64,000 nucleotides of DNA from Azonexaceae bacterium (lineage in GTDB: Bacteria > Pseudomonadota > Gammaproteobacteria > Burkholderiales > Rhodocyclaceae): the NCBI GenBank assembly GCA_013335535.1, contig JAAXVL010000010.1, forward strand, positions 78,992 to 142,991. The letters are read 5' to 3'. Both the position numbers and the translations under genes were made by a program. The notes beneath the pieces are model-generated. The model was not told the origin of the DNA and ran no database searches. It saw only the letters and a program-made list of their open reading frames with translations. This document shows positions 16,501 to 40,043 of this stretch, one piece after another; the stretch's first letter is position 1; the number at the start of each line of letters is the position of its first letter.

Positions 16501-16618
16501 CGAAGACCAGAATCGCTGCGTCAGTGCCGGCATGAACGACTATGTGACCAAGCCAGTCGATCCCGACGTGCTCTACGCCACCCTGCTCAAGTGGCTACGG
16601 CAGAAAAAAACGGACTGA
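13562..16618 (+). CDS. hybrid sensor histidine kinase (periplasmic family-3 SBP domain, TM, PAS, GAF, HisKA, HATPase_c, REC)
   Basis: H-box [13 protein letters not shown]; N/G boxes ([23 protein letters not shown]); receiver region DMQMPRMDG...TANA. The start is uncertain (13436, 13511 or 13562); 13562 gives a plausible signal/TM start. Confidence 0.85.
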
Positions 16619-16623
16619 CCGCA

Positions 16624-22646: not shown

Positions 22647-23581
22647 GGTTTTGCCCCCAATGCTTCCTGCTCGGCCGCCGGAAAAAGATGGCCAACCGAA
22701 CGGCGATATTCGCTGGCGGCGACCGGCAGGCGAGCAAACTCGGCGGGCAGCGGGCGAGCCAGCACGTCGTTCATGTCCAGCCCGGCTTTCGCCGCGTCGC
22801 GCATGGCGGCGGTCAGCCAGGTCAGCCAGGCGCGGGTCTGGCGAATCGGCGCGGCATCGCTGGTCGGCGCGCCGTGGCCGGGCAGCAACGCCTTGAAGCC
22901 GGCTTCGCGGGTCACCCCTTCGAGCTGGTCGAGCGCCTTGAGCCAGTGGGCGACGTCCGCGTGCGGCGTGGTCGGGGCGCGGCCGTTGAAGGCGAGATCG
23001 CCGGCGAAGACGACGCCGCTCGTTTCATCGACGATGACCAGGTCGGCGCCGGTATGGCCGTCGAGCCCGACGAGGCGCAGGCTCCGACCAGCCACCTCGA
23101 GGCGGCCGGCATTCAGCGTCTTGCCGGGCAGCTGAACTTCGGTGCCCTTCATCCAGTCGCCGCTCATGCGGAAGAGGTTCTCGGCGAAGGCGTTGCCATC
23201 GGCGGCGATGCCGTTACGCGTCTCGGCCAGCGCAGCGATGGGCACATCGGCAAAAGCCTGGTTGCCGAGAAAATGGTCGGGATGGTGGTGGGTGTTGATG
23301 ACCAGCGCGATGGGCTTGTTCGTCACGGCGGCAATGGCCCGGCGCATCTGCTGGCCGTAGCGCAGCGACGGGCCGCTGTCGATGACGATGACGCCCTGCG
23401 CAGCGACGATGAAGGCGGTGTTGACGATATTGCCGCCGTTGTCGGTGGTGAAATCCTCGGTCTTGCCGATGAAGGCGTAGACGTCCCTGGCGATCTCGAC
23501 CGGGCTCAGGCGATAGTCGAAATCGACCGCCCCGAGCTGGCCGGCGACGAGCATGAGTAACGCGCAGAGCAGGCGTTTCAC
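22643..23581 (-). CDS. periplasmic metallo-beta-lactamase-fold hydrolase (recalled family: quinoprotein relay system zinc metallohydrolase)
   Basis: HHHPDH zinc motif and a signal peptide. The family name is from memory of TIGRFAM-style PQQ-linked families and needs an HMM check. Confidence 0.7.
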   Translation of the reverse strand: MKRLLCALLMLVAGQLGAVDFDYRLSPVEIARDVYAFIGKTEDFTTDNGGNIVNTAFIVAAQGVIVIDSGPSLRYGQQMRRAIAAVTNKPIALVINTHHHPDHFLGNQAFADVPIAALAETRNGIAADGNAFAENLFRMSGDWMKGTEVQLPGKTLNAGRLEVAGRSLRLVGLDGHTGADLVIVDETSGVVFAGDLAFNGRAPTTPHADVAHWLKALDQLEGVTREAGFKALLPGHGAPTSDAAPIRQTRAWLTWLTAAMRDAAKAGLDMNDVLARPLPAEFARLPVAASEYRRSVGHLFPAAEQEALGAKP

Positions 23582-24348
23582 TGCGCAATCCTCGCTGTGA
23601 AGGCATTGCCGTTGTTGTCGCGGCCGCTCGCTTCGACCGGGCCGTCGGCGCTGGTCCGTTGCAGGGTGAATACCGGATTTTCGCTGACCGGCTCATAGGT
23701 CTGGACGCGCATCAGACGCTTGCCAGCGGCGTCGGCGAAGTTGATTTCCTCGAGAAAGAAGGCTGGCGTGCCGGCAACCAGGCCGGTATCCATCGGATGC
23801 ACGATGCGCATGCGCAGCCGGCCGGCGTTCGGGCCTTCGCTCCACTGGCGGCCGCTCACTTCGTTGAGGCGCTGCTGCCACTCCTTCGAACCACCGGCCG
23901 CCGACGGGGCCGTGCAGCCGCCGCCCACGGTGTTCACCCAGGTGCCGCCGACATGCCAGACGCCATCGGCCGTGCGCACGGCAGCGCGGACCGGCGTCGA
24001 TTGCTGCAGCTTGACGCGAAAGCCGAGGAAAGCCGGGGCATCTTCAGGAAAGAAGCGCAGCACCTGCACAATCGGATTGAAATCGGCAAAGACGACGACT
24101 TCGACAACCCCGGGCAGCGCCGTTGCATCGACGGTGACCGGCACCTGCATCGGATTTTCAGCCGTCGACGGGGCAACCACCTTGACGCGCGGGTCGAACA
24201 ACACCGGCGCGCCGGCCAGGAAAGCTTTCTGCATTTCCGACCAGCGCGCCGAGGCGAGCGGATCGCCGTTCTCGCGCAAGGCGGCAGCTTCGGCCGGGGG
24301 CATCAATGCCGCCAGGGCAATCGCCGCAATGGTCAGTGGGTATTTCAT
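23578..24348 (-). CDS. SoxYZ-like fusion protein (recalled family: quinoprotein dehydrogenase-associated SoxYZ-like carrier)
   Basis: Signal peptide and an internal GGGC motif (VNTVGGGCTAPS) resembling the SoxY carrier cysteine. The C-terminal half is SoxZ-like by composition. Confidence 0.55.
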   Translation of the reverse strand: MKYPLTIAAIALAALMPPAEAAALRENGDPLASARWSEMQKAFLAGAPVLFDPRVKVVAPSTAENPMQVPVTVDATALPGVVEVVVFADFNPIVQVLRFFPEDAPAFLGFRVKLQQSTPVRAAVRTADGVWHVGGTWVNTVGGGCTAPSAAGGSKEWQQRLNEVSGRQWSEGPNAGRLRMRIVHPMDTGLVAGTPAFFLEEINFADAAGKRLMRVQTYEPVSENPVFTLQRTSADGPVEASGRDNNGNAFTARIAQ

Positions 24349-24394
24349 CTTGTCTCACTCCTTTTGCCCTGTGGGCTCTTTGCCGAGAACCGTT

Positions 24395-24410
24395 TGCAAA
24401 GCGCGTGCCA
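24395..24410 (-). promoter_or_regulatory. sigma-54 (-24/-12) promoter for the 7-gene minus-strand operon
   Basis: Minus strand reads TTGGCACGCGCTTTGCA (TGGCAC-N5-TTGCA), about 50 nt upstream of ATG 24348. Confidence 0.65.
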
Positions 24411-24506
24411 AGAACCGCCGGTTTTGCCGAATCGCTGATCTGGCCAGCAAAGGCGCTGTGGCGCCGCACACTGTCACAGCACCTGATCAACCGGTGTGTG
24501 CAACTT

Positions 24507-24513
24507 TGGAGCA
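24507..24513. promoter_or_regulatory. TGGAGCA half-site (candidate enhancer/UAS element) between the divergent sigma-54 promoters
   Basis: The same heptamer forms a perfect palindrome at 26718-26738 and recurs at 35973-35979, each about 100-190 bp upstream of a sigma-54 promoter. Confidence 0.3.
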
Positions 24514-24623
24514 GGTGGTGACAATTGGAACAGCGCTCCTGCCAACTGCCCGGCCCGGCAAAAAATCCGCGAAATGCCGGCTTCAGCCCCGCCAACAGGA
24601 GCGCCGGGGGTTTCGGCCCGGCT

Positions 24624-24639
24624 TGGCACAGCCCTTGCA
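24624..24639 (+). promoter_or_regulatory. sigma-54 promoter upstream of the PQQ alcohol dehydrogenase gene
   Basis: TGGCACAGCCCTTGCA, a perfect TGGCAC-N5-TTGCA, about 130 nt upstream of ATG 24770. Confidence 0.7.
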
Positions 24640-24769
24640 GATTGTGTCCCCGCCAGCGAGCCGGTTCAGGGAATGGAGGTGGCTCGCCAGCATGTCATTC
24701 CACGCAGGCAGACCGTGTTCAGCACGGTTTTTCTGCGGAGGAACCATCGGATAATCAAGGAGACAATCC

Positions 24770-26551
24770 ATGCATAGTCATACCCCTTTCAAGCGGAGAG
24801 TCGTTACCCTCGCGCTTCTGACGGCAGCGGCATTTGCCGGCAGCCCGGCCAGCGCCGTCGTCACTGACGCCGACATCCTCAACGACGCCACGACCAAGGG
24901 CGACGTCGTCAGCTTCGGCCTCGGCACCCAGGGTCAGCGCTTCAGCCCGTCCACCCAGATCAACGCCAAGACGGTGAAGAACCTGGTCCCGGCCTGGTCG
25001 ATGTCCTTCGGCGGCGAGAAGCAGCGCGGCCAGGAATCGCAACCGGTCATCCACAACGGCAAGATGTTCGTCACCGCTTCCTACAGCCGCCTGTTCGCCA
25101 TCGACGCGAAGACCGGCAAGAAGCTGTGGAAGTACGAGCACCGCCTACCGGACGGCATCATGCCGTGCTGTGACGTGATCAACCGCGGCGCTGCCCTGTA
25201 CGACAACCTCGTCATCTTCGCGACGCTGGATGCCCAGCTCGTCGCCATGAACCAGGACACCGGCAAGGTCGTCTGGAAGGAAAAGCTCGGTGACTACGCT
25301 GCCGGCTACTCCGCTTCCGCTGCCCCGATCATTGCCAAGGGCAAGCTGATCACCGGTATCTCCGGTGGCGAATTCGGCGCCGTCGGCCGTATCGACGCCC
25401 GCGATCCGAAGACCGGCAAGCTGCTGTGGACGCGTCCGACCGTCGAAGGCCACATGGGCTATCGTTTCGACGCCGATGGCAAGCAGATCGAAAACGGCAT
25501 CTCCGGCACGACCAACGCCACCTGGACCGGCGACCTCTGGCAAACCGGCGGCGCAGCCACCTGGAACGGCGCCACCTACGATCCGGAAACCAACCTGATC
25601 TTCGCCGGCACCGGCAACCCGGCCCCGTGGAACAGCCACCTGCGTCCGGGCGACAACCTGTTCTCGTCCTCCACCGTGGCCATCGACGCCGACACCGGCA
25701 AGATCGCCTGGCACTACCAGAACACCCCGCACGACGGCTGGGACTTTGACGGCGTGAACGAATTCGTTTCCTTCGATTACAAGGATCCGAAGACGGGCAA
25801 GATCATCAAGGCCGGCGGCAAGGCCGACCGTAACGGTTTCTTCTTCGTGAACGACCGCACCAACGGCAAACTGCTCAACGCCTTCCCGTTCGTCAAGAAG
25901 ATCACCTGGGCTAGCGGCATCAACCTGGAAACGGGCCGTCCGAACTACATCGAAGAAGGCCGTCCGGGTGACCCGACCGCCAGCACCGATGGCAAGAAGG
26001 GCAAGGTCGTCTTCTCGGCTCCGTCCTTCCTCGGCGGCAAGAACCAGCAGCAGATGGCCTACTCGCCGCAGACCGGCCTGTTCTACGTGCCGGCCAACGA
26101 GTGGTCGATGGACATCTGGAATGAGCCGGTTTCGTACAAGAAGGGCGCGGCCTACCTGGGCGCCGGCTTCACCATCAAAGCGCTCAACGACGACCATATC
26201 GGCGTCCTGCGCGCTGTCGATCCGGCCACCGGCAAGATCGTCTGGGAAAACAAGAACTACGCCCCGCTCTGGGGTGGCGTCCTGACGACCGCTGGCGGCC
26301 TGATTTTCTACGGCACCCCGGAAGGCTTCCTGAAGGGTGTTGATGCCAAGACCGGCAAGGAACTGTGGTCCTTCAACGTCGGTACCGGCATCGTTGCACC
26401 GCCGGTCAGCTGGGAACAGGATGGCGAGCAGATGATCGCCGTGACGACTGGCTGGGGCGGCGCTGTTCCGCTCTGGGGCGGCGATGTGGCCAAGCGCGTG
26501 AACTTCCTCGAACAGGGTGGTTCCGTCTGGGTCTTCAAGCTGCACAAGTAA
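24770..26551 (+). CDS. PQQ-dependent alcohol dehydrogenase, methanol/ethanol family (type I quinoprotein), lanthanide-type active-site signature
   Basis: Signal peptide, vicinal-disulfide motif MPCCDV, W-motif propeller repeats, and the catalytic region [13 protein letters not shown] with D325 and D327. AAGGAGA RBS. Confidence 0.9.
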
Positions 26552-26592
26552 TCAATGCTCTGTCTTTCGGGCGCTTCGGCGCCCGATTGAAA

Positions 26593-26625
26593 CGGCGCGA
26601 TGACTTCGGTCCTCGCGCCGTTTTT
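26593..26625 (+). terminator. rho-independent terminator after the ADH gene
   Basis: CGGCGCGA-12 nt-TCGCGCCG followed by TTTTT. Preceded by a second small hairpin GGGCGC-TTCG-GCGCCC at 26569-26584. Confidence 0.65.
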
Positions 26626-26660
26626 CATTTTTGGGCGATTTTTCCGGTTGACCGTGGCAA
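26623..26660 (+). repeat. dispersed 40-bp repeat, copy 7
   Basis: tttcatttttgggcgatttttccggttgaccgtggcaa. Confidence 0.85.
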
Positions 26661-26717
26661 ACGCGCTGACTTCAATAAAGGCCAGCAGCGCGAGACTGTT
26701 CGACTTTGCACCACCCT

Positions 26718-26738
26718 GTTGCTCCATTCTGGAGCAAC
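26718..26738. promoter_or_regulatory. perfect palindrome GTTGCTCCA-TTC-TGGAGCAAC (candidate activator-binding site)
   Basis: Read directly from the sequence; about 190 bp upstream of the sigma-54 promoter at 26916. Confidence 0.35.
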
Positions 26739-26915
26739 TCTGCTCGTCGCCCGCAGATGGCGCCCGTGAGCCCGGCTCCGCGCAGGCAAGCCGGCGTCCG
26801 GCAAGGCTCGCTGGCCCTCGCCGGCAGGGTCGCAGCCGTCTCGCCGGGCCATCGACATGCCGCATAACGGGTCAAAACCGGTGCAGCCGCTGAATTATTC
26901 GGCAAAGCCCCTACC

Positions 26916-26931
26916 TGGCGCGGGATTTGCC
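26916..26931 (+). promoter_or_regulatory. sigma-54-type promoter upstream of the cytochrome c / Cache genes
   Basis: CTGGCGCGGGATTTGCC has the GG-N10-GC spacing and one mismatch in each element; about 118 nt upstream of ATG 27050. Confidence 0.55.
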
Positions 26932-27049
26932 TTTAGGGACTCAACGTCGTCAAGGAATTCGAAAAATCCTGGGCAATTTAGCCTTACATTTTTAATTGGG
27001 CCGCTCGGCATTATTTTTGAGCCGGCTTTTTAACCTTTGGGAGTAGAAC

Positions 27050-27427
27050 ATGTCATTGCTACGTCAACTGATCATCACCGCCGCACTCGCTGCCGCAGCG
27101 CAAACGGCCTGTGCCGATGCCGCCAACGACGAAAAGATGAAAAAACTGGCCGCCTACGCCGGCTGCTTTACCTGCCACACCATCGAGCACAAGGACAACC
27201 CGGATGGCAGCAAGCCGATCGGCCCGGCCTGGAAGGATGTGGCCGAGCAGTACCGCGGCAAACCCGGCGCCACCGATTTCCTGACCCGCGTCGTCCAGGA
27301 AGGCTCGAATCCCTATTCGAGCCACTGGAAGAACCGCGTTACCGGCATCGCCATGCCGCCGAACGCCGTCGCCATCAGCGCCAACGACACGCGCCAGCTC
27401 GTCTCGTGGATACTGTCGCTGAAATAA
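27050..27427 (+). CDS. mono-heme c-type cytochrome (c551/c552-like)
   Basis: Signal peptide, CFTCH heme motif and GPAWKDVAEQY, related to the GPAYKDVAAKY of the cytochrome at 38250. Confidence 0.8.
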   Translation: MSLLRQLIITAALAAAAQTACADAANDEKMKKLAAYAGCFTCHTIEHKDNPDGSKPIGPAWKDVAEQYRGKPGATDFLTRVVQEGSNPYSSHWKNRVTGIAMPPNAVAISANDTRQLVSWILSLK

Positions 27428-27485
27428 GCTGCTGCACCTTCATGCCGCGCCGGCTTGCCGGCCAACCCTTTTGGAGTTTCCGCGT

Positions 27486-28340
27486 ATGAGCACTTTCTCC
27501 CTCGCCCTTCGCCTGGCCGGCCTTCTGCTGGCGCTTGCTTGCGGCGTCGCAACGGCCGGCGAGCGCGCCACGCCGCGCGAAGCCCGCGCCTTTTTCGACC
27601 AGGCGGTGAAATACCTGCAGGCCAACGGCCCCGAAAAGTCATGGGCAGCCTTCAGCAATCGCAAAGGCCCGTTCGTCAAGAAGGACCTCTACGTTTACGT
27701 CATCGACCGGCAAGGCACCTACATCGCCAACGGTGCGTCGCCGGAGGCGCTGGTCGGGATGAACGTGCTCGACAGCGTCGATGCCTCGGGCACCCCCCTC
27801 TTCCGGCACATGATCGCTGTCACCGAGAAGCAGACCGAGGCGCGCATCCGCTACGTCTGGCTCAACCGCAAGACCAACCACGTCGAGCCGAAGAATGCCT
27901 GGCTGCACCGCGAAGGGGACTACATCCTCGGCGTCGGCTACTACTCTCCGCACGCCACAGCGCTCGATGCCCAGAAGCTCCTCGGCGATGCCGTCGCCTT
28001 CGCCATCAAGAACGGGATGAGCGTAGCCACCAAGGCTTTCAACGAGACCAAGGGAGCCTTTGTGCGCGACGATCTCTACGTCTTTGCCGTCAATCTCGAC
28101 AGCGGAAAATTCGAGGCGCACGGCGTGAACCCGGCCTGGACCGGAACCGATGCGCTGAGCCTCCACGATGTCGAAGGTCACGCCCTGATTCAGGACATGA
28201 TCGACCAGGCGAAGAGCAAGGGCACCGGCGTCGTCGATTATGTCTGGCGCAATCCGGTCACCAATGCTGTCGAGCGCAAGCGCTCCTTCATCCAGCGCGT
28301 CGATAACAGCCTGCTCGGCGTCGGTTACTACCTGGACTGA
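27486..28340 (+). CDS. secreted protein with two tandem single-Cache (sCache_2-like) domains and no output domain
   Basis: Start at ATG 27486 (MSTFSLALRLAGLLLALACG). There are two internally repeated halves, each with KG.F.(K/R)DLYV(Y/F).., Y(V)W.N(R/P).T and LGVGYY motifs. Confidence 0.7.
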   Translation: MSTFSLALRLAGLLLALACGVATAGERATPREARAFFDQAVKYLQANGPEKSWAAFSNRKGPFVKKDLYVYVIDRQGTYIANGASPEALVGMNVLDSVDASGTPLFRHMIAVTEKQTEARIRYVWLNRKTNHVEPKNAWLHREGDYILGVGYYSPHATALDAQKLLGDAVAFAIKNGMSVATKAFNETKGAFVRDDLYVFAVNLDSGKFEAHGVNPAWTGTDALSLHDVEGHALIQDMIDQAKSKGTGVVDYVWRNPVTNAVERKRSFIQRVDNSLLGVGYYLD

Positions 28341-28503: not shown

Positions 28504-28911
28504 TTAGTGGATGCCGTTGGCCGACAGGGTCGGGGCATACTTGAAATCGACTTTGGGGATGTGTTCGATCAGCCAGTCACGCAGGAAAGCGGTCGTCTGC
28601 TCGGAAATCTCGGCGGCGCCAGCATGAAATTTCGCTTGCAGATCGGCGCAGGTCTGCACCAGCTTGGCGTGCTCCAGTTTGTGCTGATCCAGGGCGGCGT
28701 ATCCCGCGGCAGCCATGTTCTTCTCTTCGGAAGAAAAGTGTTCGACGACATAGGCAATCAGTCCATCCAGCGATGCACCGATAGCGCTCCGCTCGTTCTT
28801 GCCAACATTCCTGTGCAGCTCGTTGAGCAGGTTGAACAGATGCTTATGTTCGTTGTCGTGGGTGACGACGTTGGTAGCGAATTGTTCCGGAGTCCAGGTG
28901 ATAAGAGACAT
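28504..28911 (-). CDS. bacteriohemerythrin
   Basis: Start moved to ATG 28911 (MSLITWTPEQFATNVVTHDNEHKHLFNLLNELH...). His/Glu iron ligand pattern H..H..E...H..H...D (HFSSEE, HKLEH, IEHIPKVD). Confidence 0.85.
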   Translation of the reverse strand: MSLITWTPEQFATNVVTHDNEHKHLFNLLNELHRNVGKNERSAIGASLDGLIAYVVEHFSSEEKNMAAAGYAALDQHKLEHAKLVQTCADLQAKFHAGAAEISEQTTAFLRDWLIEHIPKVDFKYAPTLSANGIH

Positions 28912-29221
28912 ATTGATCCTTTGCGTAGTTTGCAAATGGTGAAAATCCTGCCGCTTTTGCGGAAGGGCTGACAGCGGCTGCCGAGACTTTGCGCTGGCTG
29001 ACCGCTTGCATTGAACGCCCGGCGGCATCCTATAACATTACTTTGTCATATGCAATTATCATTATTGCGACATATTGCCGCAGTGAAAAACGCCTGCCGA
29101 GGCAAGCCGTGACTGGGTTTTTCGGGAAAATCCCATTGCTTTTTCTGCTTCCTGGGCACGCAGGTAAAAAAGCGGGGGCACACCTTGGCTGGCAGGAGCG
29201 CTGCCAGGCAACGGAAACAGC

Positions 29222-29372: not shown

Positions 29373-31907
29373 CTAATCGACCTGTGTGCGCAGTGCGATC
29401 AGGGTCTGCTCGGCGGTTTCGAAATCGAACATCTTGATCTGCCTCACCAGTTTTTCGCCTTCACCGGGGAAGGCGGCGCGCAGCAGGGCGGCGTGCTTGT
29501 CGAGCAGGCCGAGGGCGGCGGTGTCGCTCTGCTGGAGCAGCTCGCCGAGCTCGTCGAGGACGGCAAGCAGGGATTCGCGGGATACGCTGATTTCGCTGGC
29601 GACCGGCAGGCGGGTCTGCGTGGGCATGGCGCCAGCGAGCGTGGTGAATTCATCGCGGATGGCATCCATGACCTGGTAAACCTGATCGCCAACAGGCTCG
29701 CCGGCGCCAGCGAGACGCAATATCTCCTCGGCCTGGCGTGCCTTGTCGGCCAGCCGCACGATGCCCAGCGTGGCCGCCGCGCCTTTCAGGGAGTGCGCCA
29801 GGTGACGGGCCGGCTGGTAATCGCGCTCGGCCAGGTGGGTGGCAAGCTGCGTCATGTCGTCAGCGTGAGCATTGACGAAGAAACAGAGCAATTCGACGTA
29901 TTTCCCGGCCTTGCCACGCACGGCAGCGAGCCCCTGGGCGACGTCCATGCCGGGCAGGCATTTGAAACTGTTCAGGATATGTTCCACGTTCGCAGCCGGG
30001 ATCGCCGGCAGGCCTACCGGGGCAGATTTGATACCGGGCGGGGCAAGCGGCAGCGGCCGTTCGGCTTCGCGCCGGGGCAGCCAGCGCAGCAGCGTGGCGT
30101 AGAGATTGACCGGATCGACCGGTTTGGCGATGAAATCGCTCATGCCGGCCTGGCGGCAGGCCTCCCGGTCTTCATCGAAAGCGTTGGCGGTCATCGCCAG
30201 GATGGGCAGTCGCGCCATGCCGGGCTGCGCACGAAGAACCCGGGTTGCTTCAAGACCATCCATGTTGGGCATCTGGACGTCCATCAGGATCAGTTCATAG
30301 GGATGCCCCCCGGCTTTTTTGACTGCTTCCATGCCGTCAACCGCGACATCCACGGACAGGCCGACACCATGCAGCAGCTCCAGAGCAACTTCGGCATTGA
30401 TCGCGTTGTCCTCGGCGAGCAGCAGGCGGGCACCGGCATACTGCTCCCGCAGGCGCATCTCGGCATCGATGACTTCCGGCGCCAGTTCTTGCTGCGAGCT
30501 GCCATGGCCGCGCTGCAGGCGGGCAGTGAACCAGAAGGTACTGCCTTGACCCGGGGTGCTATCGACGCCGTATTTGCCGCCCATGAGCTGGGCGATGCGG
30601 CGAGTGATGACGAGGCCGAGTCCGGTGCCGCCGAATTTGCGGGTGGTCGACACATCGACCTGTTCGAAGGCGTGAAAGAGCCGGTCCACCTTGTCCGGCG
30701 CGATGCCGATGCCGGTGTCGGCAACTTCGAAACGGACCAGCAGTCCGTCGCCGCCGTCCTCGAGAAGCCGGGCGCGCAGACTGACGCTACCGCGTTCGGT
30801 GAACTTGATGGCATTGCTGGCGTAGTTGAGCAAGGCCTGACGCAGGCGGGTCGGATCGCCGCGCAGCCAAACAGGCACGTCGTCTTCGTCCACGAGAATG
30901 CTCAGCCCCTTGGCTTGCGCGGAATCCGAGATCATCGAGCGGACATGGTCGAGGACGGAGCCCAGGGCGAAATTGGTTTCGTCGAGATGGATCTTGCCGG
31001 CCTCGATTTTCGACAGGTCGAGAATGTCGTTGATGACTGACAGCAGGTGATGGCCGGCGCTGTTGATCTTGTCCAGGCGCTCGATCTGCTCCGGGCTGGC
31101 GCCGTTGTGCAGCAGGTGGGTGAGGCCGAGGATGGCGTTCATCGGCGTGCGGATTTCGTGGCTCATGTTGGCCAGGAAGATGCTCTTCGCCTCGTTGGCC
31201 GCCTCGGCCTGTTGCTTGGCGATGGTCAGGTCGGCGGTGCGAATCAGGACGAGATTTTCCAGATGGTCGCGGTGCCGCTTGAGCTCGGCTTCGGCCTTTT
31301 GCCGCTTGTAGTTGCGGATTTCGTTGCTGAGCAAAAGCGCGGCGTGGCTGAAGAAGATTGGCAGATAGTGGACCAGCGACGCCCCGATGATGTGGATGTT
31401 CTCCAGCTTGACGATGCCGATCAGCTCGTCGCCGAGCAGCAGCGGAAAACACCAGGTGCACGAGCCGGGCAAGGCCCCGTCGCGCAGCAGCGAATCGGCG
31501 GCGTCACCGTTGACTTCGACGAAGCGCCGGGTGGTCAAGAGCTGCCGGGCGACTGGGTCGTCAATTTCCCGGACGATGCGCATGTCGCCGAACAGCTCGG
31601 ACAAATAGAGGTCTTCGTCGATCCAGTACCAGATCTTGATATTGGTTCCGCCGATGGTCTCGATGATGTTGCGCAGCATGGCATTGACCATGTCGTGGAC
31701 GCCGGGCAAGGGGTCGAGCTGCTCGATCATGCGGACGATCAGCTGCAAATAGGACTTCTCCTCGGCCAACCGGCGCACGCGTCCGCGCAGGCGCTCGATT
31801 TCGGCCTGCGGACTATCGTTACCGGGGATCGGGAAATCAACTGGCAAGCTGTTTTTTCCGGGAAAGGGCGTCGGCGATGACCGCCTCGAGATGCGAGAGG
31901 TCGGCAT
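29373..31907 (-). CDS. soluble hybrid sensor histidine kinase (coiled coil, GAF, HisKA, HATPase_c, REC, HPt)
   Basis: H-box [13 protein letters not shown]; ATPase boxes; receiver region [11 protein letters not shown]; C-terminal HPt ([11 protein letters not shown]). No TM segment. The start is uncertain (31958 GTG, 31934, 31907 or TTG 31847), and all candidates overlap the end of the DUF1638 gene. Confidence 0.8.
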
Positions 31908-32460
31908 CCATCCACTGCAAAGGCAGGTCGACATAGGCCGCCGCCACTTCGGCAGCACGCGTGAAATCGCCGGAACAGGGCGTGCGGATCGCCGTCATGA
32001 ACTTATGGCTGCTGTGAAAGATTTCCCGGATCACGGCAGGATTGTCGCCAAAGCACTTGCTGATCATCGGTTCCCAGGTCAGCGCCCAGTCCTCGAGCAG
32101 AAAATAGGCACCCTTTTCGAGTTCCTCCATGAATTTCTCGTAGCCGATCAGCATGACGATGCAGTTCTGGCCCTGAGTACGCAGGGTGTGGTGTTTCTCG
32201 AGAATGCTGTCGATCTGCGGATGGCAGCAGCCGTAAAAAACCACCGTATCGCGCCCCTGCAACTCGTCGTTGGCCAGCGTCGCGTTGAGCTGCTCGGACA
32301 GCTTGCCCAGGTAGTTGTGCAGCGCCGAATCGAGAAACTGGGTTTCGACCTGCCAGCCGTTCTTCCTGACCAGCCAATCGACCTCCTTGTGCAGGATGCC
32401 GCAACCGACAATGGTCAACGGCTTGTCAGCGGCAACGACGGGGGGCATGACGGTTTTCAT
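31837..32460 (-). CDS. DUF1638-family protein
   Basis: Start at ATG 32460 overlapping the stop of the upstream gene (ATGA). [13 protein letters not shown] and [11 protein letters not shown] motifs fit DUF1638 as I recall it. The longer ORF-track N-terminus overlaps the upstream gene. Confidence 0.65.
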
Positions 32461-33485
32461 GAGTAACTCCCGAATTCGAAGGCGGCATCGAGCATGGCCT
32501 GGATATTGGCTGCCGGCACGCTGAGCGGCACAACCCCGGTGCCGAACAGGAAATGCTGCCCAACCTTGCCGATGTCGCACAGGCGTCTGACTTCGTCTCG
32601 CGTCTGTTCCGTTGTCCAGTGAATCATCTTGATGTCGTCGATGACGCCGCAGGTCAGCCCCTGGCTGCCGATGATCCCCTTGGCCTCGGCCAGGTCGGCC
32701 AGCGGGCTGATGTAATGGACATTGATTTTCAGTTCGTCCATGACCTGGGCAATGACGCTGTTGAACGGCGCCATGCCGCAGTAGTAGACGATGTCGCGGA
32801 TGCCACCCGGCGCCAGATCGCGCTGCATCCACGGCATGATCAGGGACTGGAAGCGCTTCATGCCGACGAAAGAGGTCGAGCCGAAGGGGGTCGAGTACAC
32901 CAGCACATTAGCCCCGGCGGCCCGGTAGGCAGCGACTTCCTTCTGATAGAAATCGGAACATTTCCGGAGCAGTTCGTCGCGCACGTCGGCCGGGCCGATC
33001 AGCAGCAATTCCAGCCATTTATCCATGCCCATGAGAATCGAGGGCAGCGTCGTCGAGGCGGTCAGGTAAGCGCAGATGGAGTGCGTCTTGCCCACCTCGT
33101 CGCGCAGGATGTTCAGGCAACGGGCCGTTTCCTGCCAGGCCGGATGGGCCGTGATGTCGTCCGGCACCTCGAGCTTGGCGATGTCGTCGTAACTCTTGAT
33201 GACGAAATCGCCAACATTGGGCGGGCCATCGTCGGCGAAGAGGATCTCGTTGCACCCCAACAGTTCGGCTTCCTTGCCGACGTAAAACAGGCTCCACACG
33301 TTGTCGTAGCCGTAGCGGGCGCGCAGTTTCAACTGGCCCGCGGCGACATGCTCGCCATTGGCAAAATATTCCCGGAACGACATGCCCAGTTCGCGCGGCC
33401 CCTGATCGAGCAGGCTGCAAAAGACCGGGATGCGCGGCGCCGGCGTGCCGTTGACGGCAGCGGCGAGAATGTCGCGCGGAGTCAT
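32457..33485 (-). CDS. uroporphyrinogen decarboxylase (URO-D) superfamily protein, MtaA/CmuA-like corrinoid methyltransferase candidate
   Basis: 342 aa with a URO-D-like layout and an ATGA overlap with the corrinoid-protein gene. The position where MtaA/MtbA carry HxCG appears to read YYCG (by-eye alignment, tentative). Confidence 0.75.
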   Translation of the reverse strand: MTPRDILAAAVNGTPAPRIPVFCSLLDQGPRELGMSFREYFANGEHVAAGQLKLRARYGYDNVWSLFYVGKEAELLGCNEILFADDGPPNVGDFVIKSYDDIAKLEVPDDITAHPAWQETARCLNILRDEVGKTHSICAYLTASTTLPSILMGMDKWLELLLIGPADVRDELLRKCSDFYQKEVAAYRAAGANVLVYSTPFGSTSFVGMKRFQSLIMPWMQRDLAPGGIRDIVYYCGMAPFNSVIAQVMDELKINVHYISPLADLAEAKGIIGSQGLTCGVIDDIKMIHWTTEQTRDEVRRLCDIGKVGQHFLFGTGVVPLSVPAANIQAMLDAAFEFGSYS

Positions 33486-34150
33486 GATTTTTTTATTCCC
33501 CGGATCAGGTCGACAATGATCCGCCCGGCGTTGACGCCATCGGCCGCCCAGGCATCGGCGCCCACCGTCTGGTAAAGGCCATCGTCGAAGCGATACGGCG
33601 CGCCGCCGACGACCAGCTTGATGCGGTCTTCGAGCCCCCGCTCGTGCAGGATGCGGCGCACCTTGCTGGCACCGTTCTCGCCGGTGGCGGTATGCACCAT
33701 CATGGCCGAGATGGCAATGACCTGGGCATTTTCGGCCTGCGCCACGTCGACGAATCGCTCGGCCGGCACATTGACGCCAAGGTCGACGACATCGACCATC
33801 AGCGCCTTGAGGCAGCCCATGACGATACGTTTGCCGAGCGAATGCAGGTCGCCGTGCGCGGTGCCCATGACGACCTTGCCAATGATTTCCGGCGGCTGCT
33901 TGAAACTGAGCAGCATCTTCTCGGTGACTTCGGCAGCGATCTGCGCCGTCATGAAGTGCTGGGCGAGGTTGGCGTCCGGGTCCTTGGTAATGTTGGACAT
34001 CATTTCCTCGACGGCCGGAATGACCACCTTGAACACGATGTCCTCGGCCGTCAGCCCCCCGGCCAGCGCGGCCTCGACCACCTCGAAGGCAGCCTCCTTG
34101 TCGGTCTCGAAAACGGCCTCGTTGTACGCTTTGACGATACGTTCAAGCAT
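33482..34150 (-). CDS. cobalamin-binding corrinoid protein (B12-binding_2 cap plus B12-binding Rossmann domain)
   Basis: DxHxxG motif present (GDLHSLGKRIV). 222 aa, the size of MtaC/MtbC/MttC-type corrinoid proteins; AGGAG RBS. Confidence 0.85.
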   Translation of the reverse strand: MLERIVKAYNEAVFETDKEAAFEVVEAALAGGLTAEDIVFKVVIPAVEEMMSNITKDPDANLAQHFMTAQIAAEVTEKMLLSFKQPPEIIGKVVMGTAHGDLHSLGKRIVMGCLKALMVDVVDLGVNVPAERFVDVAQAENAQVIAISAMMVHTATGENGASKVRRILHERGLEDRIKLVVGGAPYRFDDGLYQTVGADAWAADGVNAGRIIVDLIRGIKKS

Positions 34151-34164
34151 GTTGGCTCCTGACG

Positions 34165-35769
34165 CTAGGGAGACGGTGCGACGGCGATGGGCCGCAGGCG
34201 CAGGTGGTTGATATAGGCTTCGTCGTAGTCAGCGATCAGAGACAGATTGATCGCTTTGATTGTGTCCGTCAATGCCGCGAAGCGCTGTGCTCCATTCGGG
34301 CTGAGCAGCGCCCTTTCACCGCCGGCCAGACTGGCGTCGGCATGCAGTTCGACGTCTTGCGCAGCGATCGGCGGCAGCAGCCCGAGCGACTGCGCACGAC
34401 CGACATCGAGCGTATGGCCAAAGGCCCCGCAGATGCAGAGGCGCCGCAGCTCGCCCCAGCCCATCCCGGCCTGGCGCAGCAACACCTCCATGGCCGCGGC
34501 AATGGCCGCCTTGGCGCGCTGGAAGGCATCGACGTCGATGCCAGTGATGGCCGTCGCCGGATTGGCCGGATCGAGCGCGTAGCCCTCCGGCCCCGGCGAA
34601 ACAACAAAGCGGCCCGACGGCTTGAGGCGGCCGTCGGCGAGCAGCACGGCAATGGCGTCGGTCAGCCCGGAGCCGCAGAACCCACGGGCCGTTTCGCCGG
34701 CGAGGGTGGCGCAGGCATAGCCCGCGTCACTGCGGCTGACCCGGTAGATGGCACCCGGCTCGGCCGGCATGCCGTGACGAATGCCGACGCCTTCGAAGGC
34801 CGGGCCGCCCGGCACCGAGGTGACGTGCAGGCAGGCACCGTCCCACAGCGCGATTTCGGTATTGGTCCCGACGTCGAGCAGGAGCGAGCCGGGCGGCCCG
34901 TCGACCAGGCCGGTGGCGACTAGGTCGGCCACCAGGTCGGAGCCGACAAAGCCGGCGACCGGCCCGGGCAGCACGATCCGGGCGTTGGGCAGATGCCAGG
35001 GCTGTTGCCAGGCGCTGCGGTCGGCCGGCTGGAAATCGACTTTTTTCTGCCAGTAGGCGGGGTCGAGCAACGCGTCACCGCCCTGCCCGGTAAGCAAGGC
35101 AAGCATCGCGGTGTTGCCGACGATGAGGACTTCGCCGATCTCGGCCAGCATCGGCGTGACTTCGCCGATATCGCGCGCCAGGATGTCGCGCACGGCGTGC
35201 ATGATGGCCTCACGCGCGCTGGCGGCCAGTTCGGCGGCATGTTCGGGATGGGCGCGGGCGGCTTCCAGGCGATTCAGCACGTCAGCGCCGAAACTGCCTT
35301 GCGGATTGGCCCCGCGCCGGGTGGCGATGCGCTTGCCGGCGCGGCGGTCCCACAGGGCGAGGCGGATATGCGTCGTCCCCAGGTCGACGGCCAGGCCGTA
35401 GCGATGGGCCGACAGTTCCGGCCGGCAGGCCGTGATCTCGGCCAGGTTTTCAGGGACGATGCTTTTCCATGCCGACGGCGGCGCCGGGTGTTCCAGTTCG
35501 ATATGCACGTCGCCCTGGATGCGCAGCTGGCAGGCCAGGCGCTGGCCGGCGGCGCGTTCTTCCGGCGTGAGCTTGAGGTATTCGGCAACGGTCGGCGGCG
35601 ACACTTCGCCGGCGATCAGGCGCACGGAGCAGGCGCCGCAGGTGCCGCTGCCGCCGCAGGCCGCACGCACGCGCAGGGCCGTGGTGTCGAGCAGGTCGCG
35701 CACCGACTGGCCGTCGCTCGCCGGCAGGCGATGCAAGCCCGTCGCGCTGCTGACGAGCAGGACGCTCAT
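34165..35769 (-). CDS. corrinoid reductive activase (RACo/RACE-like: N-terminal [2Fe-2S] ferredoxin plus ASKHA ATPase domain)
   Basis: Plant-type ferredoxin cysteines CGGSGTCGACSV...LACQ, followed by a long ASKHA/DUF4445-like region (AVDLGTTHIRLAL, LLLDVGTNTEIAL). Confidence 0.8.
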   Translation of the reverse strand: MSVLLVSSATGLHRLPASDGQSVRDLLDTTALRVRAACGGSGTCGACSVRLIAGEVSPPTVAEYLKLTPEERAAGQRLACQLRIQGDVHIELEHPAPPSAWKSIVPENLAEITACRPELSAHRYGLAVDLGTTHIRLALWDRRAGKRIATRRGANPQGSFGADVLNRLEAARAHPEHAAELAASAREAIMHAVRDILARDIGEVTPMLAEIGEVLIVGNTAMLALLTGQGGDALLDPAYWQKKVDFQPADRSAWQQPWHLPNARIVLPGPVAGFVGSDLVADLVATGLVDGPPGSLLLDVGTNTEIALWDGACLHVTSVPGGPAFEGVGIRHGMPAEPGAIYRVSRSDAGYACATLAGETARGFCGSGLTDAIAVLLADGRLKPSGRFVVSPGPEGYALDPANPATAITGIDVDAFQRAKAAIAAAMEVLLRQAGMGWGELRRLCICGAFGHTLDVGRAQSLGLLPPIAAQDVELHADASLAGGERALLSPNGAQRFAALTDTIKAINLSLIADYDEAYINHLRLRPIAVAPSP

Positions 35770-35972
35770 GACATTTGGCCGTGAAATAAATGGATGTTGC
35801 GCACAGGGATCAATCGCGAACGGCTCACCCGAAAAAGCATACGCAATTTTTCACTTCGGTGGTGGTGGCGAAAGTTGGCTGGAAGCTCAATTTTTCAAAA
35901 TTTACGGCCGTCGCCGTGCGCCTCACCTCGGCGGCAATTGTGCGCAATCACGTTGTGCTCAGCCAAGGCGAC

Positions 35973-35979
35973 TGCTCCA
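35973..35979. promoter_or_regulatory. TGCTCCA half-site (candidate UAS) upstream of the aldehyde dehydrogenase promoter
   Basis: acTGCTCCAttcc matches the left half, including the TTC spacer, of the palindrome at 26718-26738. About 130 bp upstream of the sigma-54 promoter. Confidence 0.3.
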
Positions 35980-36060
35980 TTCCTGAACACCTGTTGAGCA
36001 GTTGATCACGCAAAAACCTCCTCCGGGTCATCTCGTGCACCGTCAACAAAATCTCAAGCC

Positions 36061-36097
36061 TTTGAAATTTGGCCATTTTTCCCGGTTGACCGTGGAA
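36061..36097 (+). repeat. dispersed 40-bp repeat, copy 9
   Basis: tttgaaatttggccatttttcccggttgaccgtggaa; ends 10 nt before the sigma-54 promoter. Confidence 0.85.
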
Positions 36098-36107
36098 GTG
36101 GCACGGC

Positions 36108-36123
36108 TGGCACACGGCATGCA
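36108..36123 (+). promoter_or_regulatory. sigma-54 promoter upstream of the aldehyde dehydrogenase gene
   Basis: TGGCACACGGCATGCA (TGGCAC-N5-aTGCA), about 115 nt upstream of ATG 36240. Confidence 0.6.
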
Positions 36124-36239
36124 CATTAGATGGCACGAGCACGGCAGGTCGCATCTTGAAACAACTGAACCGGCCGGCTTCGAGTTAGCCCTTTGAGTTA
36201 CCTGTTTTGCAACTTCATTCAAGAACACTGGAGACAAAC

Positions 36240-37760
<1,521 letters not shown>

Positions 37761-37859
37761 AACCGGGCATCTCCTCCACTGGCCGCATTTAGATTTGCGG
37801 GCAACTCTTGGGGGCGGGCAACCGCCCCCCTTTTTTAAACTCGTTTCCAGGAGAAATTC

Positions 37860-38231
37860 ATGGTCGACCGCGTCATCGCCACCCCGGCAACGCTGGAACT
37901 CATCGCGCTCCTGAAACAGCAATACGGCCCGGAACTGATGTTCCACCAGTCCGGCGGCTGCTGCGACAACAGCGCGCCCAACTGCTACCTGCCCACCGAC
38001 CTGACCGTCGGCGCCTACGATGTCCATCTCGGCGATATCGGCGGCGTTCCTTTCTACATCAATGCCTCGCAGTACGAGTACTGGAAACACACGCAACTGA
38101 TCATCGATGTCGTCGCCGGCCAAGGCGGCAATTTCTCGCTCGAAGGCAACACCGGCAAGGCTTTCCACACCCGTTCGCGGCTCTTTACCGATGCCGAATG
38201 GGCCGAACTGCAGGCGGCCGGCCTCGTTTAA
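37860..38231 (+). CDS. DUF779-family protein (usual partner of this aldehyde dehydrogenase type)
   Basis: 123 aa with the FHQSGGCCDNS motif; conserved adjacency to the ALDH gene. Confidence 0.8.
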   Translation: MVDRVIATPATLELIALLKQQYGPELMFHQSGGCCDNSAPNCYLPTDLTVGAYDVHLGDIGGVPFYINASQYEYWKHTQLIIDVVAGQGGNFSLEGNTGKAFHTRSRLFTDAEWAELQAAGLV

Positions 38232-38249
38232 ATCCAAGGAACCATTCAC

Positions 38250-38588
38250 ATGACCAAGCAACTGCGCACCACCCTGCTGCTGCCCCTGCTCGCAGCCGCC
38301 ACCTTCGCTGCCACCTTTCCGGCCCATGCCACCGATGGCGAAGCCGCCGTCAAGAAAGCCCGCTGCATCGCCTGCCATGCCGTTGACACAAAGCGCGTCG
38401 GCCCGGCCTACAAGGACGTCGCCGCCAAATACAAGGGTGACGCCAAGGCACCAGGCGTCCTCTTCGACAAGGTCCGCCACGGCGGCTCCGGCAATTGGGG
38501 CACGGTGCCGATGATTCCGCACCCGGCCGACAAGATCAGCGACGAAGAACTGCACGCAGCGATCCAGTGGATCCTCTCGCTGCACTGA
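38250..38588 (+). CDS. cytochrome c551/c552 family mono-heme cytochrome
   Basis: Signal peptide, CIACH heme motif, GPAYKDVAAKY, and Met ligand region GTVPMIPH. Confidence 0.85.
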   Translation: MTKQLRTTLLLPLLAAATFAATFPAHATDGEAAVKKARCIACHAVDTKRVGPAYKDVAAKYKGDAKAPGVLFDKVRHGGSGNWGTVPMIPHPADKISDEELHAAIQWILSLH

Positions 38589-38658
38589 GCAACAAGCGGT
38601 AATACGCTGCCAGACCAGGGGAGAACAGCAAGCCCCGGCATGTTGGCAGCACGAAATC

Positions 38659-38691
38659 GGGGAGAAGCGGCGTCGCTTCTCCCCTTTTTTT
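38659..38691 (+). terminator. rho-independent terminator
   Basis: GGGGAGAAGCG-GCGT-CGCTTCTCCCC followed by T7. Confidence 0.75.
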
Positions 38692-38798
38692 GCCCTTCGG
38701 CGGACGCATAAGCAAATAATAATCAAGTCGTTCGTCGGCAAATCCCTGCTTGGTAGCCTGTGCTTCCCCAAAGACACAGACCAACAGAGATACCCCTC

Positions 38799-40043
38799 AT
38801 GAACAAACATCAACTGCTCCCGATTGTCCTGGCGCTCGGGCTGGCCGCGCCGGGCGTGGCATTCGCCACCAATGGTTATCTGTCGCACGCCTACGGCGTC
38901 AAGGCGCAAGGCCTGGCCGGCGTCGGCATTGCCCTGCCACAGGACGGCCTGGCTGCCGCCACCAATCCGGCCGGCACAGCCTTCGTCGGCGACCGTGCCG
39001 ACATCGGCATCACCTGGTTCCAGCCGACGCGCGGCGTCGATATCAGCGGCAACGGCGCCGGGCTCGATGGCAGCTACGACGGGAACGACACGAAGAATTT
39101 CTTCATCCCCGAAATCGGCTACACCAAGCAGCTGAACCAGCAGTGGGCGGTCGGCGTCGCGGTCTATGGCAATGGTGGCATGAACACCGACTACGGCCGC
39201 AACCCGTGGGCGTCCTTCGGCGCCACCGGCTCGGCCGGGGTCAATCTCGAACAGCTCTTCGTCTCGCCCAACGTCGCCTTCAAGATCACCCCGGACCACG
39301 CCGTCGGCCTCGCCCTCAATCTCGCCTACCAGCGCTTCGAGGCCAAGGGCATCGGCATCTTCGCCGGCGGCGGCAATTCCGAATCGCCGGCCGATTTTTC
39401 CGACCGCGGCACCGACACATCCTACGGTGCGGGTGTGCGCATCGGCTACACCGGCAAGCTGACGCCCTCGCTGACCGTCGGCGCCACCTATTCCAGCAAG
39501 ACCAAGACGAGCAATTTCGACAAGTACAAGGGCCTCTTCGCCGAACAGGGCGGCTTCGACGTGCCGGCCAACTACGGCCTCGGCCTGGCCTGGCAGGCTA
39601 CCCGGCAACTGACGCTGGCCGCCGACGTGCAGCTCATCAAATACAGCGACGTCAAGTCGGTGGGCAATCCGCTGGTCACTGGCAGTCAGTTCGGTTCGTC
39701 GAACGGCCCCGGTTTCGGCTGGAAGGACGTGACAACCGTCAAGATCGGCGCCAGCTTCGAGCTCAATCCCGACCTCACGCTACGCGCCGGCTACAGCCAC
39801 GCCACCCAGCCGATTCCGTCTGACCAGGTATTCCTCAACATCCTCGCCCCCGGCGTCGTACAGGACCACCTGAGCCTGGGCGCCACCTGGAAACCGAGCA
39901 AGAACGGCGAACTGAGCGTGGCCTACACCCACGCCTTCAAGGAAACCGTGAGCGGCGCCATCCCCGCCGCCTACGCCGGCGGCCGGGCCGACATCCACCT
40001 GCAGGAAAACGTCCTCGGGATCGCCTACGGCTGGAAATACTGA
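38799..40043 (+). CDS. OmpP1/FadL/TodX-family outer-membrane transporter for hydrophobic compounds
   Basis: Start at ATG 38799 (MNKHQLLPIVLALGLAAPGVAFA). N-terminal hatch motif TNGY..H.YG.KA.G.AG; C-terminal GIAYGWKY. Confidence 0.85.
   Translation: MNKHQLLPIVLALGLAAPGVAFATNGYLSHAYGVKAQGLAGVGIALPQDGLAAATNPAGTAFVGDRADIGITWFQPTRGVDISGNGAGLDGSYDGNDTKNFFIPEIGYTKQLNQQWAVGVAVYGNGGMNTDYGRNPWASFGATGSAGVNLEQLFVSPNVAFKITPDHAVGLALNLAYQRFEAKGIGIFAGGGNSESPADFSDRGTDTSYGAGVRIGYTGKLTPSLTVGATYSSKTKTSNFDKYKGLFAEQGGFDVPANYGLGLAWQATRQLTLAADVQLIKYSDVKSVGNPLVTGSQFGSSNGPGFGWKDVTTVKIGASFELNPDLTLRAGYSHATQPIPSDQVFLNILAPGVVQDHLSLGATWKPSKNGELSVAYTHAFKETVSGAIPAAYAGGRADIHLQENVLGIAYGWKY

Follow-up and report, generated by a model that had tools for sequence, protein, structure and literature searches.

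Does a set of genes for corrinoid-dependent methyl transfer that ends in a histidine kinase gene encode a pathway that processes a substrate, or a device that senses one? This question is raised by five chained genes at positions 29373-35769 of a 64,000-nucleotide stretch of DNA from an Azonexaceae bacterium (assembly GCA_013335535.1, contig JAAXVL010000010.1; the whole stretch is referred to below as the window). The genes encode a reductive activase, a corrinoid protein, a URO-D superfamily protein, a DUF1638 protein, and a hybrid histidine kinase with a GAF-like input domain. An initial annotation had offered two explanations for them: a catabolic methyl-transfer pathway that reports to a phosphorelay, or a B12/redox-based sensory device. 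We found that the corrinoid protein, the URO-D-like enzyme, and the GAF input domain are co-conserved across phyla, that the outputs attached to the input domain are variable, and that the zinc site of MtaA has been lost. We conclude that the module is most likely a B12-based sensory device rather than a substrate-processing pathway.

Gene order and conservation of the module

Listing and translation of open reading frames (ORFs), together with Pfam and NCBIfam scans, placed five consecutive minus-strand genes at 29373-35769, chained by overlaps and a short gap as the initial annotation had described. The first gene encodes a RACo/RamA-type ATP-dependent reductive activase (34165-35769; 534 amino acids, aa) and is separated by a 14-nucleotide (nt) gap from the gene for a corrinoid (B12-binding) protein of the methyltransferase-cognate type (33482-34150; 222 aa). 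The corrinoid gene shares a 4-nt, ATGA-type overlap with the gene for a URO-D superfamily, MtaA-like putative corrinoid methyltransferase (32457-33485; 342 aa), which overlaps the gene for the DUF1638 protein (31837-32460; 207 aa) in the same way. The hybrid histidine kinase gene comes last (29373-31847; 824 aa); it shares 11 nt with the DUF1638 gene, and its TTG start at 31847, which overlaps the DUF1638 stop, is also called as the kinase start on an identical metagenomic contig. Apart from the GAF label of the kinase, Pfam bore out the domain identities that had been proposed for the five proteins, and hydropathy analysis found no hydrophobic segment resembling a membrane span in any of them, in agreement with the earlier description of the kinase as cytoplasmic.

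Searching one genome per GTDB species with the URO-D-like protein yielded 69 loci, in which the neighboring genes were counted from searches with all five window proteins; the outlying locus L069 and the window's own fragment, L001, were left out of these counts. The corrinoid gene adjoined the URO-D-like gene in 66 of 68 loci. The DUF1638 gene followed the URO-D-like gene in 54 of the 62 loci with room for it, and among 58 loci with sufficient sequence, 41 had an activase gene upstream in the same orientation and 3 more had a divergent one. In 60 of the 61 loci that extend far enough, the next gene after the module opens with sequence homologous to kinase residues ∼10-205; the median gap before this sensor gene was ∼12 nt. 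The same gene order recurs in at least 60 independent loci, in phyla that range from Proteobacteria to Chloroflexi, Verrucomicrobia, and Planctomycetes, far more often than chance would allow.

The hosts include Rhodocyclaceae, Thiobacillus, Gallionellaceae, Sulfuricella, and Sterolibacterium; Methylomonas, Methylobacter, Methylomicrobium, Competibacter, Magnetococcales, and Mariprofundus; and Geobacter, Desulfobulbaceae, Bacteroidales, Verrucomicrobiota, Phycisphaerae, Anaerolineae, Hydrogenedentota, and others. Single metagenome-assembled genomes (MAGs) from Methylobacter, Methylococcaceae, and Methylicorpusculum carried two paralogous modules each (L060/L063, L062/L064, and L046/L070), with ∼57% and ∼74% identity to the window URO-D-like enzyme, which suggests diversified specificities.

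As a reciprocal test, we inspected the contigs of 10 sensor-domain proteins chosen from the searches. A B12-binding protein was encoded just upstream in the same orientation in all 10, and a URO-D-like gene lay between the corrinoid and sensor genes in 8. On the contigs of proteins P0004 and P0237, the corrinoid gene was followed directly by a stand-alone sensor-domain gene with a 4-nt overlap. The element that travels with the corrinoid and URO-D-like genes is the sensor domain rather than the whole kinase, and this favors the second of the two explanations in the initial annotation, a B12/redox-based sensory device.

Minimal corrinoid-sensor pairs were seen on the P0004 contig (ENA ERZ1426827) and at L076:237-1654, with a coiled-coil tail on the sensor. 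On the P0004 contig (32 kilobases, kb), no URO-D, DUF1638, or activase gene was found within 8 kb of the pair, which is surrounded by PAS kinases, receivers, and a GGDEF protein. A different arrangement was present at L077:225-10017, where one corrinoid/URO-D pair precedes two proteins that start with the sensor domain (469 and 2057 aa), suggesting that one corrinoid module can serve several outputs.

The input domain corresponds to residues ∼1-195 of the window kinase (31263-31847, minus strand). Its AlphaFold model (predicted local distance difference test score, pLDDT, 82.5) consists of a long N-terminal helix and a divergent GAF fold. When the model was compared with the PDB using Foldseek, the top 50 matches were nearly all GAF domains with a probability of 1.0 (best E 2.3e-6), and the model resembled the GAF domains of PDE5 and PDE2. 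Pfam did not call the domain GAF (GAF_3 16.4 bits versus a cut-off of 27), and just 18 of 40 sensor-domain homologues gave even a sub-threshold GAF_2 match; the GAF label of the initial annotation is therefore correct for the fold but falls short of the gathering scores of the Pfam GAF clan. We rejected MEDS and PocR as identities for this domain, there being no Pfam match to either and the fold being that of GAF. Positions R23, L36, G67, D97, W132, P135, L136, and L173 are invariant. The homologue alignments contained no conserved cysteine, so a role for the GAF domain as a methyl acceptor is unlikely and was set aside. The remainder of the kinase matched HisKA, HATPase_c, Response_reg, and Hpt in Pfam, and its phosphorelay residues are intact: His230 in the H-box SHEIRTP, the receiver Asp, and the HPt His in HSLKG. 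With the NahK/ErcS-family model (cut-off 400 bits), it reached 181 bits.

Word-indexed searches were weak for the sensor domain, returning 2 proteins with the domain alone and 6 with a 40-sequence profile, and a sequence search of the PDB gave noise only. An exhaustive phmmer search of 1.84 billion representatives yielded a family of 423 representative clusters, 354 of them at E ≤1e-10. Among the best 150 of the 423, the domain began within approximately the first 20 residues in 149; the proteins are 171-2057 aa long. We surveyed the outputs using Pfam on 20 downstream proteins and a local domain survey of all of them. Kinase outputs comprised HisKA-HATPase, HisKA-HATPase-REC with or without HPt, and PocR-PAS-kinase; outputs of the cyclic di-GMP (c-di-GMP) type comprised PAS-GGDEF (in Competibacter) and PAS-GGDEF-EAL-CZB; and the sensor domain also preceded long PAS/GAF arrays or stood alone (238-310 aa). 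Interchangeable outputs of this kind are the hallmark of a sensor input domain and not of one operon's regulator. PocR was found in a Sulfuricella MAG, in which the protein at L010:11733-14567 carries the sensor domain, then PocR (149 bits), then PAS and kinase domains; on the P0264 contig, a PocR-containing kinase precedes the module.

We then considered what else travels with these genes by all-against-all clustering of the ORFs within ±10 kb of the module. The five module families were the only ones found in more than 14 loci. In these flanks, no second methyltransferase or folate-linked gene was conserved near the module in any lineage, and no transporter or DNA-binding response regulator was conserved across the more than 60 loci. 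This argues against the catabolic C1 pathway of the initial annotation and, more generally, against an ordinary corrinoid-dependent methyl-transfer pathway, for demethylation or detoxification, with an adjacent substrate-sensing regulator. In such a pathway the URO-D-like enzyme would load the methyl group, unloading would fall to another methyltransferase, encoded elsewhere, or, as in MtsA/MtsB, to the loading enzyme itself, and the GAF domain would bind substrate or product and merely control expression. The combination of activase, corrinoid protein, and URO-D-type enzyme is indeed the architecture of methyl transfer in methanogens and acetogens, a folate methyltransferase is likewise missing from the related bacterial mlp clusters, for which a metabolic role is assumed, and histidine kinases account for most of the outputs. 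However, the outputs also include c-di-GMP enzymes and stand-alone domains, corrinoid-sensor pairs occur without the enzyme, and the sensor gene closes the operon and overlaps the gene before it, an arrangement suggestive of a stoichiometric partner rather than a regulator. We therefore consider a metabolic pathway unlikely.

The neighbors of the module are often other signaling genes. In 12 loci, most of them from Methylobacter, a gene for an HD-GYP-type protein (HD_5 plus DUF3391) lies a few kb or less from the module (e.g., L005:7081-8409); the protein is a possible c-di-GMP branch of the module's circuit.

The corrinoid protein and its partner enzymes

The corrinoid protein matched the Pfam B12-binding family (PF02310) with 73.7 bits and contains the His-on motif DLHSLG at residues 101-106, so its assignment as a B12-binding protein was correct. 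Among its homologues, DlHsLGK is at least 90% conserved, and SaMM..T and VGGAP are also conserved. The best PDB matches were corrinoid proteins of methyltransferases (1Y80, MttC 7XCN, MtmC 3EZX, and MtaC 2I2X). The putative N-terminal helical cap scored 19.9 bits for B12-binding_2, whose cut-off is 23, and full-length alignments to 1Y80, 7XCN, and 3EZX span the cap region. The protein was below the NCBIfam cut-offs, with 93.3 versus 215.3 bits for TIGR02370, and was far below those of the MtgC, MtbC, and MtaC models too.

B12-binding domains are established light sensors that occur fused to GGDEF, GAF, and other signaling domains, the PDB matches of the corrinoid protein include the B12-binding GGDEF protein 8J2Y, and the methyl-cobalt bond is photolabile. 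These properties could point to a renewable B12 photoreceptor, in which light would photolyze methylcobalamin on the corrinoid protein, the GAF domain would sense the change, and the enzymes would rebuild the bond in the dark; a regeneration kit beside the sensor would make sense in such a device. The light signature of CarH-type proteins consists of GxxW, EH, GxxH, and GxxxP motifs around the upper face of adenosylcobalamin (PMC11796333). The corrinoid protein departs from this signature, with no Trp in residues 1-90 and QH replacing EH, and its closest relatives are methyltransferase partners and not CarH (TransRegCarH 21.5 bits versus a cut-off of 400). The habitats of many hosts are dark (groundwater, Mariprofundus, Geobacter, anaerobic reactors), and no photolyase or carotenoid genes are conserved nearby. 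A photoreceptor function thus appears very improbable.

The activase matched RACo_C_ter (178.5 bits), Raco_middle (98.1 bits), and Fer2 (40.4 bits), which correspond to its ASKHA, middle, and iron-sulfur domains. Its N-terminal [2Fe-2S] ferredoxin domain contains Cys38, Cys44, Cys47, and Cys80, and its closest structure is RACo (PDB 3ZYY, E 6.7e-54).

Corrinoids in the Co(I) state are readily oxidized, which would suit a purely redox, oxygen, or oxidant (e.g., N2O or NO) sensor in which methyl transfer is incidental and the read-out is whether or not cobalt is kept reduced. Consistent with such a sensor, many hosts denitrify or inhabit oxic-anoxic interfaces (Thiobacillus denitrificans, Competibacter denitrificans, Sulfuricella, Gallionellaceae, Mariprofundus, methanotrophs, and magnetotactic bacteria), and a hemerythrin gene lies just downstream of the module in the window. 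It would leave unexplained, however, why the conserved URO-D-like gene is near-universal while the activase is the more dispensable neighbor; moreover, the module is also present in strict anaerobes, and the hemerythrin gene is not conserved in related loci. We regard a sensor of redox state alone as improbable.

The URO-D-like protein matched Pfam URO-D over its full length (128.8 bits; a TIM-barrel fold) and gave a full-length phmmer alignment to MtaA (4AY7, E 1.3e-6). MtaA/CmuA models were its nearest, with scores below their cut-offs (67.7 versus 235.4 bits for TIGR01463 and 72.9 versus 244 for PRK06252). The initial annotation had tentatively read YYCG in place of the HxCG zinc motif of MtaA-type enzymes, and the alignment to 4AY7 confirmed this reading: with high posterior support, Y-Y-C-G stands opposite H-I-C-G and G-T-G opposite G-C-G. 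We take these positions in 4AY7 to be the His and two Cys with which MtaA binds the zinc that activates coenzyme M. Two of the three MtaA zinc ligands are accordingly missing from the window protein (YYCG at residue 234 and GTG at residue 315). Across 66 homologues, VYYCG is at least 90% conserved, so the loss is a family trait and not a sequencing quirk; Thr is the majority residue at its position. The absence of the zinc site needed for thiol activation is a further point against an ordinary methyl-transfer pathway. Several other cysteines are conserved in the family (in FCNL, LGC, PICAY, KCS, and LTCG), and these could form an alternative Cys-based metal site. The URO-D-like protein is 50-91% identical across phyla, apart from one outlier, L069, at 32%. 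We regard it as a putative methyltransferase acting on the corrinoid protein, what the loci display being the adjacency of the two genes.

The DUF1638 protein matched PF07796 with 95.5 bits (gathering score 27). Within its subfamily, Cys20 (GCG), Cys79-His80-Pro81, and Cys100 (GQNC) are invariant and Cys162 (RTPC) is near-invariant; these conserved Cys and His residues hint at a possible metal or iron-sulfur site. Its predicted structure is alpha/beta (pLDDT 86.6). A Foldseek comparison of the model with the PDB gave no significant match and no methyltransferase (best E 4e-3, TM ≤0.46), and a profile search of the PDB returned noise only. In Phaeobacter inhibens, DUF1638 mutants and mutants of the ferredoxin-DUF4445 (RamA-like) protein show the fitness pattern of methionine auxotrophs that is also seen for the split methionine synthase, and the two families co-occur across Alphaproteobacteria; in Ruegeria pomeroyi, the DUF1638 and RamA-like proteins both rise on methylated osmolytes.

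It had been suggested that DUF1638 supplies the missing half-reaction of methyl transfer, and our results argue against this suggestion. The fitness and proteome results in the literature link DUF1638 with the RamA-like activase and corrinoid reactivation rather than with methyl transfer, its gene is gone from 8 of 62 loci that retain the corrinoid, URO-D-like, and sensor genes, and its confidently predicted structure matches no methyltransferase, nor anything else in the PDB. We conclude that DUF1638 is probably an accessory to the reductive activation of the corrinoid. A single polypeptide, P0215 (L075:2698-4623, 641 aa), joins DUF1638 to the sensor domain, HisKA, and HATPase, and this fusion hints, by Rosetta-stone logic, that DUF1638 works at the sensor.

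A proposed corrinoid sensor and its known relatives

How could these proteins act together? We propose that the URO-D/MtaA-like enzyme would shuttle methyl groups to or from the corrinoid cobalt, with a small molecule as the other partner, and that the RACo-type activase, helped by DUF1638, would use ATP and low-potential electrons to return oxidized Co(II) to Co(I). Probably through direct binding to the corrinoid protein, the divergent GAF domain at the N terminus of the kinase would distinguish its methyl-Co(III) state from Co(I)/Co(II). The sensed state would set the activity of the attached output, which is a HisKA-HATPase-REC-HPt phosphorelay kinase here and a plain kinase or a c-di-GMP cyclase/phosphodiesterase elsewhere. 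If the corrinoid state is what is read, the signal would lie in how much methyl donor or acceptor is available and/or in cobalt-trapping oxidants.

We favor, with modest confidence, the reading that the GAF domain follows the methylation or redox state of the corrinoid protein and that the five genes form one sensory unit. A constant cofactor protein, enzymes that set its state, and one input domain with many outputs together make an accessory-sensor pattern, unlike that of catabolic operons with a cognate regulator. The 4-nt-overlapping pairs of corrinoid and stand-alone sensor genes, the DUF1638 fusion, and the overlapping start and stop codons in the window lend further support. A broader proposal is that an enzymatically cycled corrinoid protein serves as the ligand of a dedicated GAF domain, giving phosphorelay or c-di-GMP output in many phyla. 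This would constitute a new sensing principle, in which the zinc-less MtaA-like enzyme would methylate the corrinoid and RACo and DUF1638 would repair it, and we offer it tentatively.

Several points weigh against a sensory unit. At locus L007, the four enzyme genes are present but the sensor gene is missing, with a convergent unrelated gene in its place. L007 is the sole exception, and the outlier L069, with 32% identity, has the corrinoid protein and lacks the sensor, so the sensor association belongs to this URO-D-like orthologous group. The extreme conservation of the URO-D-like protein also fits a housekeeping catalytic role and would be equally expected of a metabolic pathway. Because most outputs are kinases, the sensor may regulate the expression of its own operon. 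The GAF domain could bind a small molecule instead of the corrinoid protein, and each genome could encode a partner methyltransferase outside the regions covered here, namely the window and the flanks of the loci. The DUF1638-sensor fusion was seen once, in a short-read assembly, where a frameshift error is possible. Finally, we infer the GAF-corrinoid contact, the cobalt state as the read-out, and the identity of the signal alike.

The methanogen systems MtaABC and MtsA/MtsB with RamA resemble the module in that a DxHxxG corrinoid protein, a URO-D-fold MtaA-like enzyme, and an ATP-dependent activase are encoded together, and in MtsA/MtsB one MtaA-type enzyme can catalyze both half-reactions. 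In contrast to these systems, the module has two of the three zinc ligands replaced, scores far below the NCBIfam cut-offs, lacks a substrate-specific methyltransferase (MT1), includes DUF1638, and ends in a dedicated sensor, and its hosts are bacteria, many of them aerobic or microaerophilic. MsmS and RdmS of Methanosarcina acetivorans are likewise cytoplasmic kinases with GAF domains, for which an association with corrinoid methyltransferase genes has been described. Unlike the kinase studied here, they are archaeal, lack an H-box, sense by means of heme or thiols in a GAF domain, and are thought to regulate methyltransferase expression; they have neither a shared module-specific N-terminal GAF subfamily nor variable outputs.

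Accessory-sensor operons (H-NOX/HnoK, NosP/NahK, and heme oxygenase/bacteriophytochrome) are alike in placing a protein that bears or makes a cofactor beside signaling proteins with variable outputs; here, the accessory is a four-protein corrinoid kit and the receiver a specific GAF subfamily, known so far from genes alone. CarH, AerR, and photocobilins also use a B12-binding domain in signaling, sometimes with GGDEF or GAF partners, whereas the module has no CarH light signature, a corrinoid protein of the methyltransferase type, and an activase and a methyltransferase alongside. The split methionine synthase and glycine-betaine demethylase systems of P. inhibens and R. pomeroyi share a corrinoid protein, a RamA-like (ferredoxin plus DUF4445/RACo) protein, and DUF1638 with the module, but they contain pterin-binding and homocysteine or MttB-type methyltransferases and have a clear metabolic phenotype; here, the sole methyltransferase is URO-D-like and the conserved partner is the GAF sensor. 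A type 1 mlp cluster, as defined by Kountz and Balskus, requires an Mlp2 and an Mlp3 as a minimum, so that two or more MtaA-like genes accompany a corrinoid protein and Ram/RACE. Such clusters are restricted to obligate anaerobes, for the most part Firmicutes, and their proposed role is in methyl-sulfur/selenium metabolism. The paper describing them mentions neither sensors nor Proteobacteria. Both the window and the related loci have a single URO-D-like gene together with DUF1638 and the sensor, and we rejected the type 1 mlp identity, for which two or more Mlps are needed.

Each part of the module adds a new member to a known family (RACo, corrinoid protein, URO-D superfamily, DUF1638, and GAF). 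Corrinoid methyltransferase systems have been associated with catabolism in methanogens and acetogens and with methionine synthase, and to our knowledge, B12 in signaling has been seen mainly as a light-sensitive chromophore. If true, a conserved corrinoid kit with one sensor domain and interchangeable outputs would represent a third use of B12; in open-access text, we found no published description of a corrinoid methyl-transfer kit coupled to a dedicated sensor domain. This work also defines an unannotated GAF subfamily of at least 423 sequence clusters and provides a second, independent functional context for DUF1638, which would gain its first defined partner if the broader sensing principle is true. 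The hosts (methanotrophs, iron and sulfur oxidizers, denitrifiers, Geobacter, Competibacter, and uncultured lineages) matter for methane, nitrogen, and wastewater processes, and cultured hosts such as Methylomonas and Methylobacter tundripaludum are tractable for testing.

Surroundings of the module in the window

The initial annotation had taken the neighboring alcohol and aldehyde dehydrogenase genes as a hint at a C1, methoxy, or methyl-ammonium substrate. In the window, the module is flanked by genes for a pyrroloquinoline quinone (PQQ) alcohol dehydrogenase (24770-26551), a cytochrome c (27050-27427), a periplasmic Cache protein (27471-28340), and an aldehyde dehydrogenase. These recurred only in L002, with 86-98% identity, and the fragment L001, which overlaps the window, also has the aldehyde dehydrogenase gene; none of the other loci, at least 60 in number, shares this context. 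Since it is limited to the nearest relative, the substrate hint does not generalize. Among the window ORFs scanned, we found no MttB, MtaB, or pterin-type methyltransferase, in line with what the initial annotation had reported, and no cobalamin synthesis genes; neither a cobalamin riboswitch nor any other Rfam family was detected in the window.

Judging from the gene layout, the operon promoter would lie in the intergenic region between the divergent activase and aldehyde dehydrogenase genes (35770-36206), where a consensus scan revealed no sigma-70-like site and counts were no better than in shuffled sequence. At the other end of the cluster, the scan placed a terminator-like hairpin 3' of the kinase gene (29092-29107, minus strand), where the five-gene unit likely ends; terminator-like sites were no more numerous than expected from shuffled sequence, so the hairpin is weak evidence for the operon end. 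It is followed by a promoter-like site (29089-29061, minus strand) before the hemerythrin gene. Behind the hairpin and this site, 344 nt downstream of the kinase gene, is the gene for the hemerythrin-domain protein (28504-29028, minus strand, 174 aa).

The region 13436-28340 contains regulatory and uptake genes around the PQQ alcohol dehydrogenase gene and resembles the exa/ped-type alcohol oxidation regions of Pseudomonas. It includes a second hybrid kinase with an SBP_bac_3-PAS-GAF input (13436-16618), a two-component pair consisting of a NarL/LuxR-type response regulator and a HAMP-HisKA_3 kinase (17532-19627), TonB and a TonB-dependent receptor (19582-22646), and a metallo-beta-lactamase-fold protein (22643-23581). 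Ethanol oxidation in Pseudomonas is under multi-kinase control, which this region recalls. It is possible that the corrinoid sensor kinase feeds the adjacent alcohol-oxidation regulon via its HPt output, an unproven link that would be local to this genome.

Two further genes, on the far side of the module, encode a GAF-sigma54 activator with an AcoR-like architecture (56261-58246, plus strand) and an ODP-family diiron metallo-beta-lactamase-fold protein (60719-61459, minus strand), a member of a family linked to oxygen sensing. We discounted a 1129-aa open frame at 36219-39608 (minus strand), antisense to the aldehyde dehydrogenase gene and its neighbors, which has no Pfam match and is most likely a high-GC artefact. 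The G+C content was 0.52-0.56 at positions 6001-10000 and ∼0.62-0.67 elsewhere in the window, and this low-G+C stretch could be foreign or intergenic DNA.

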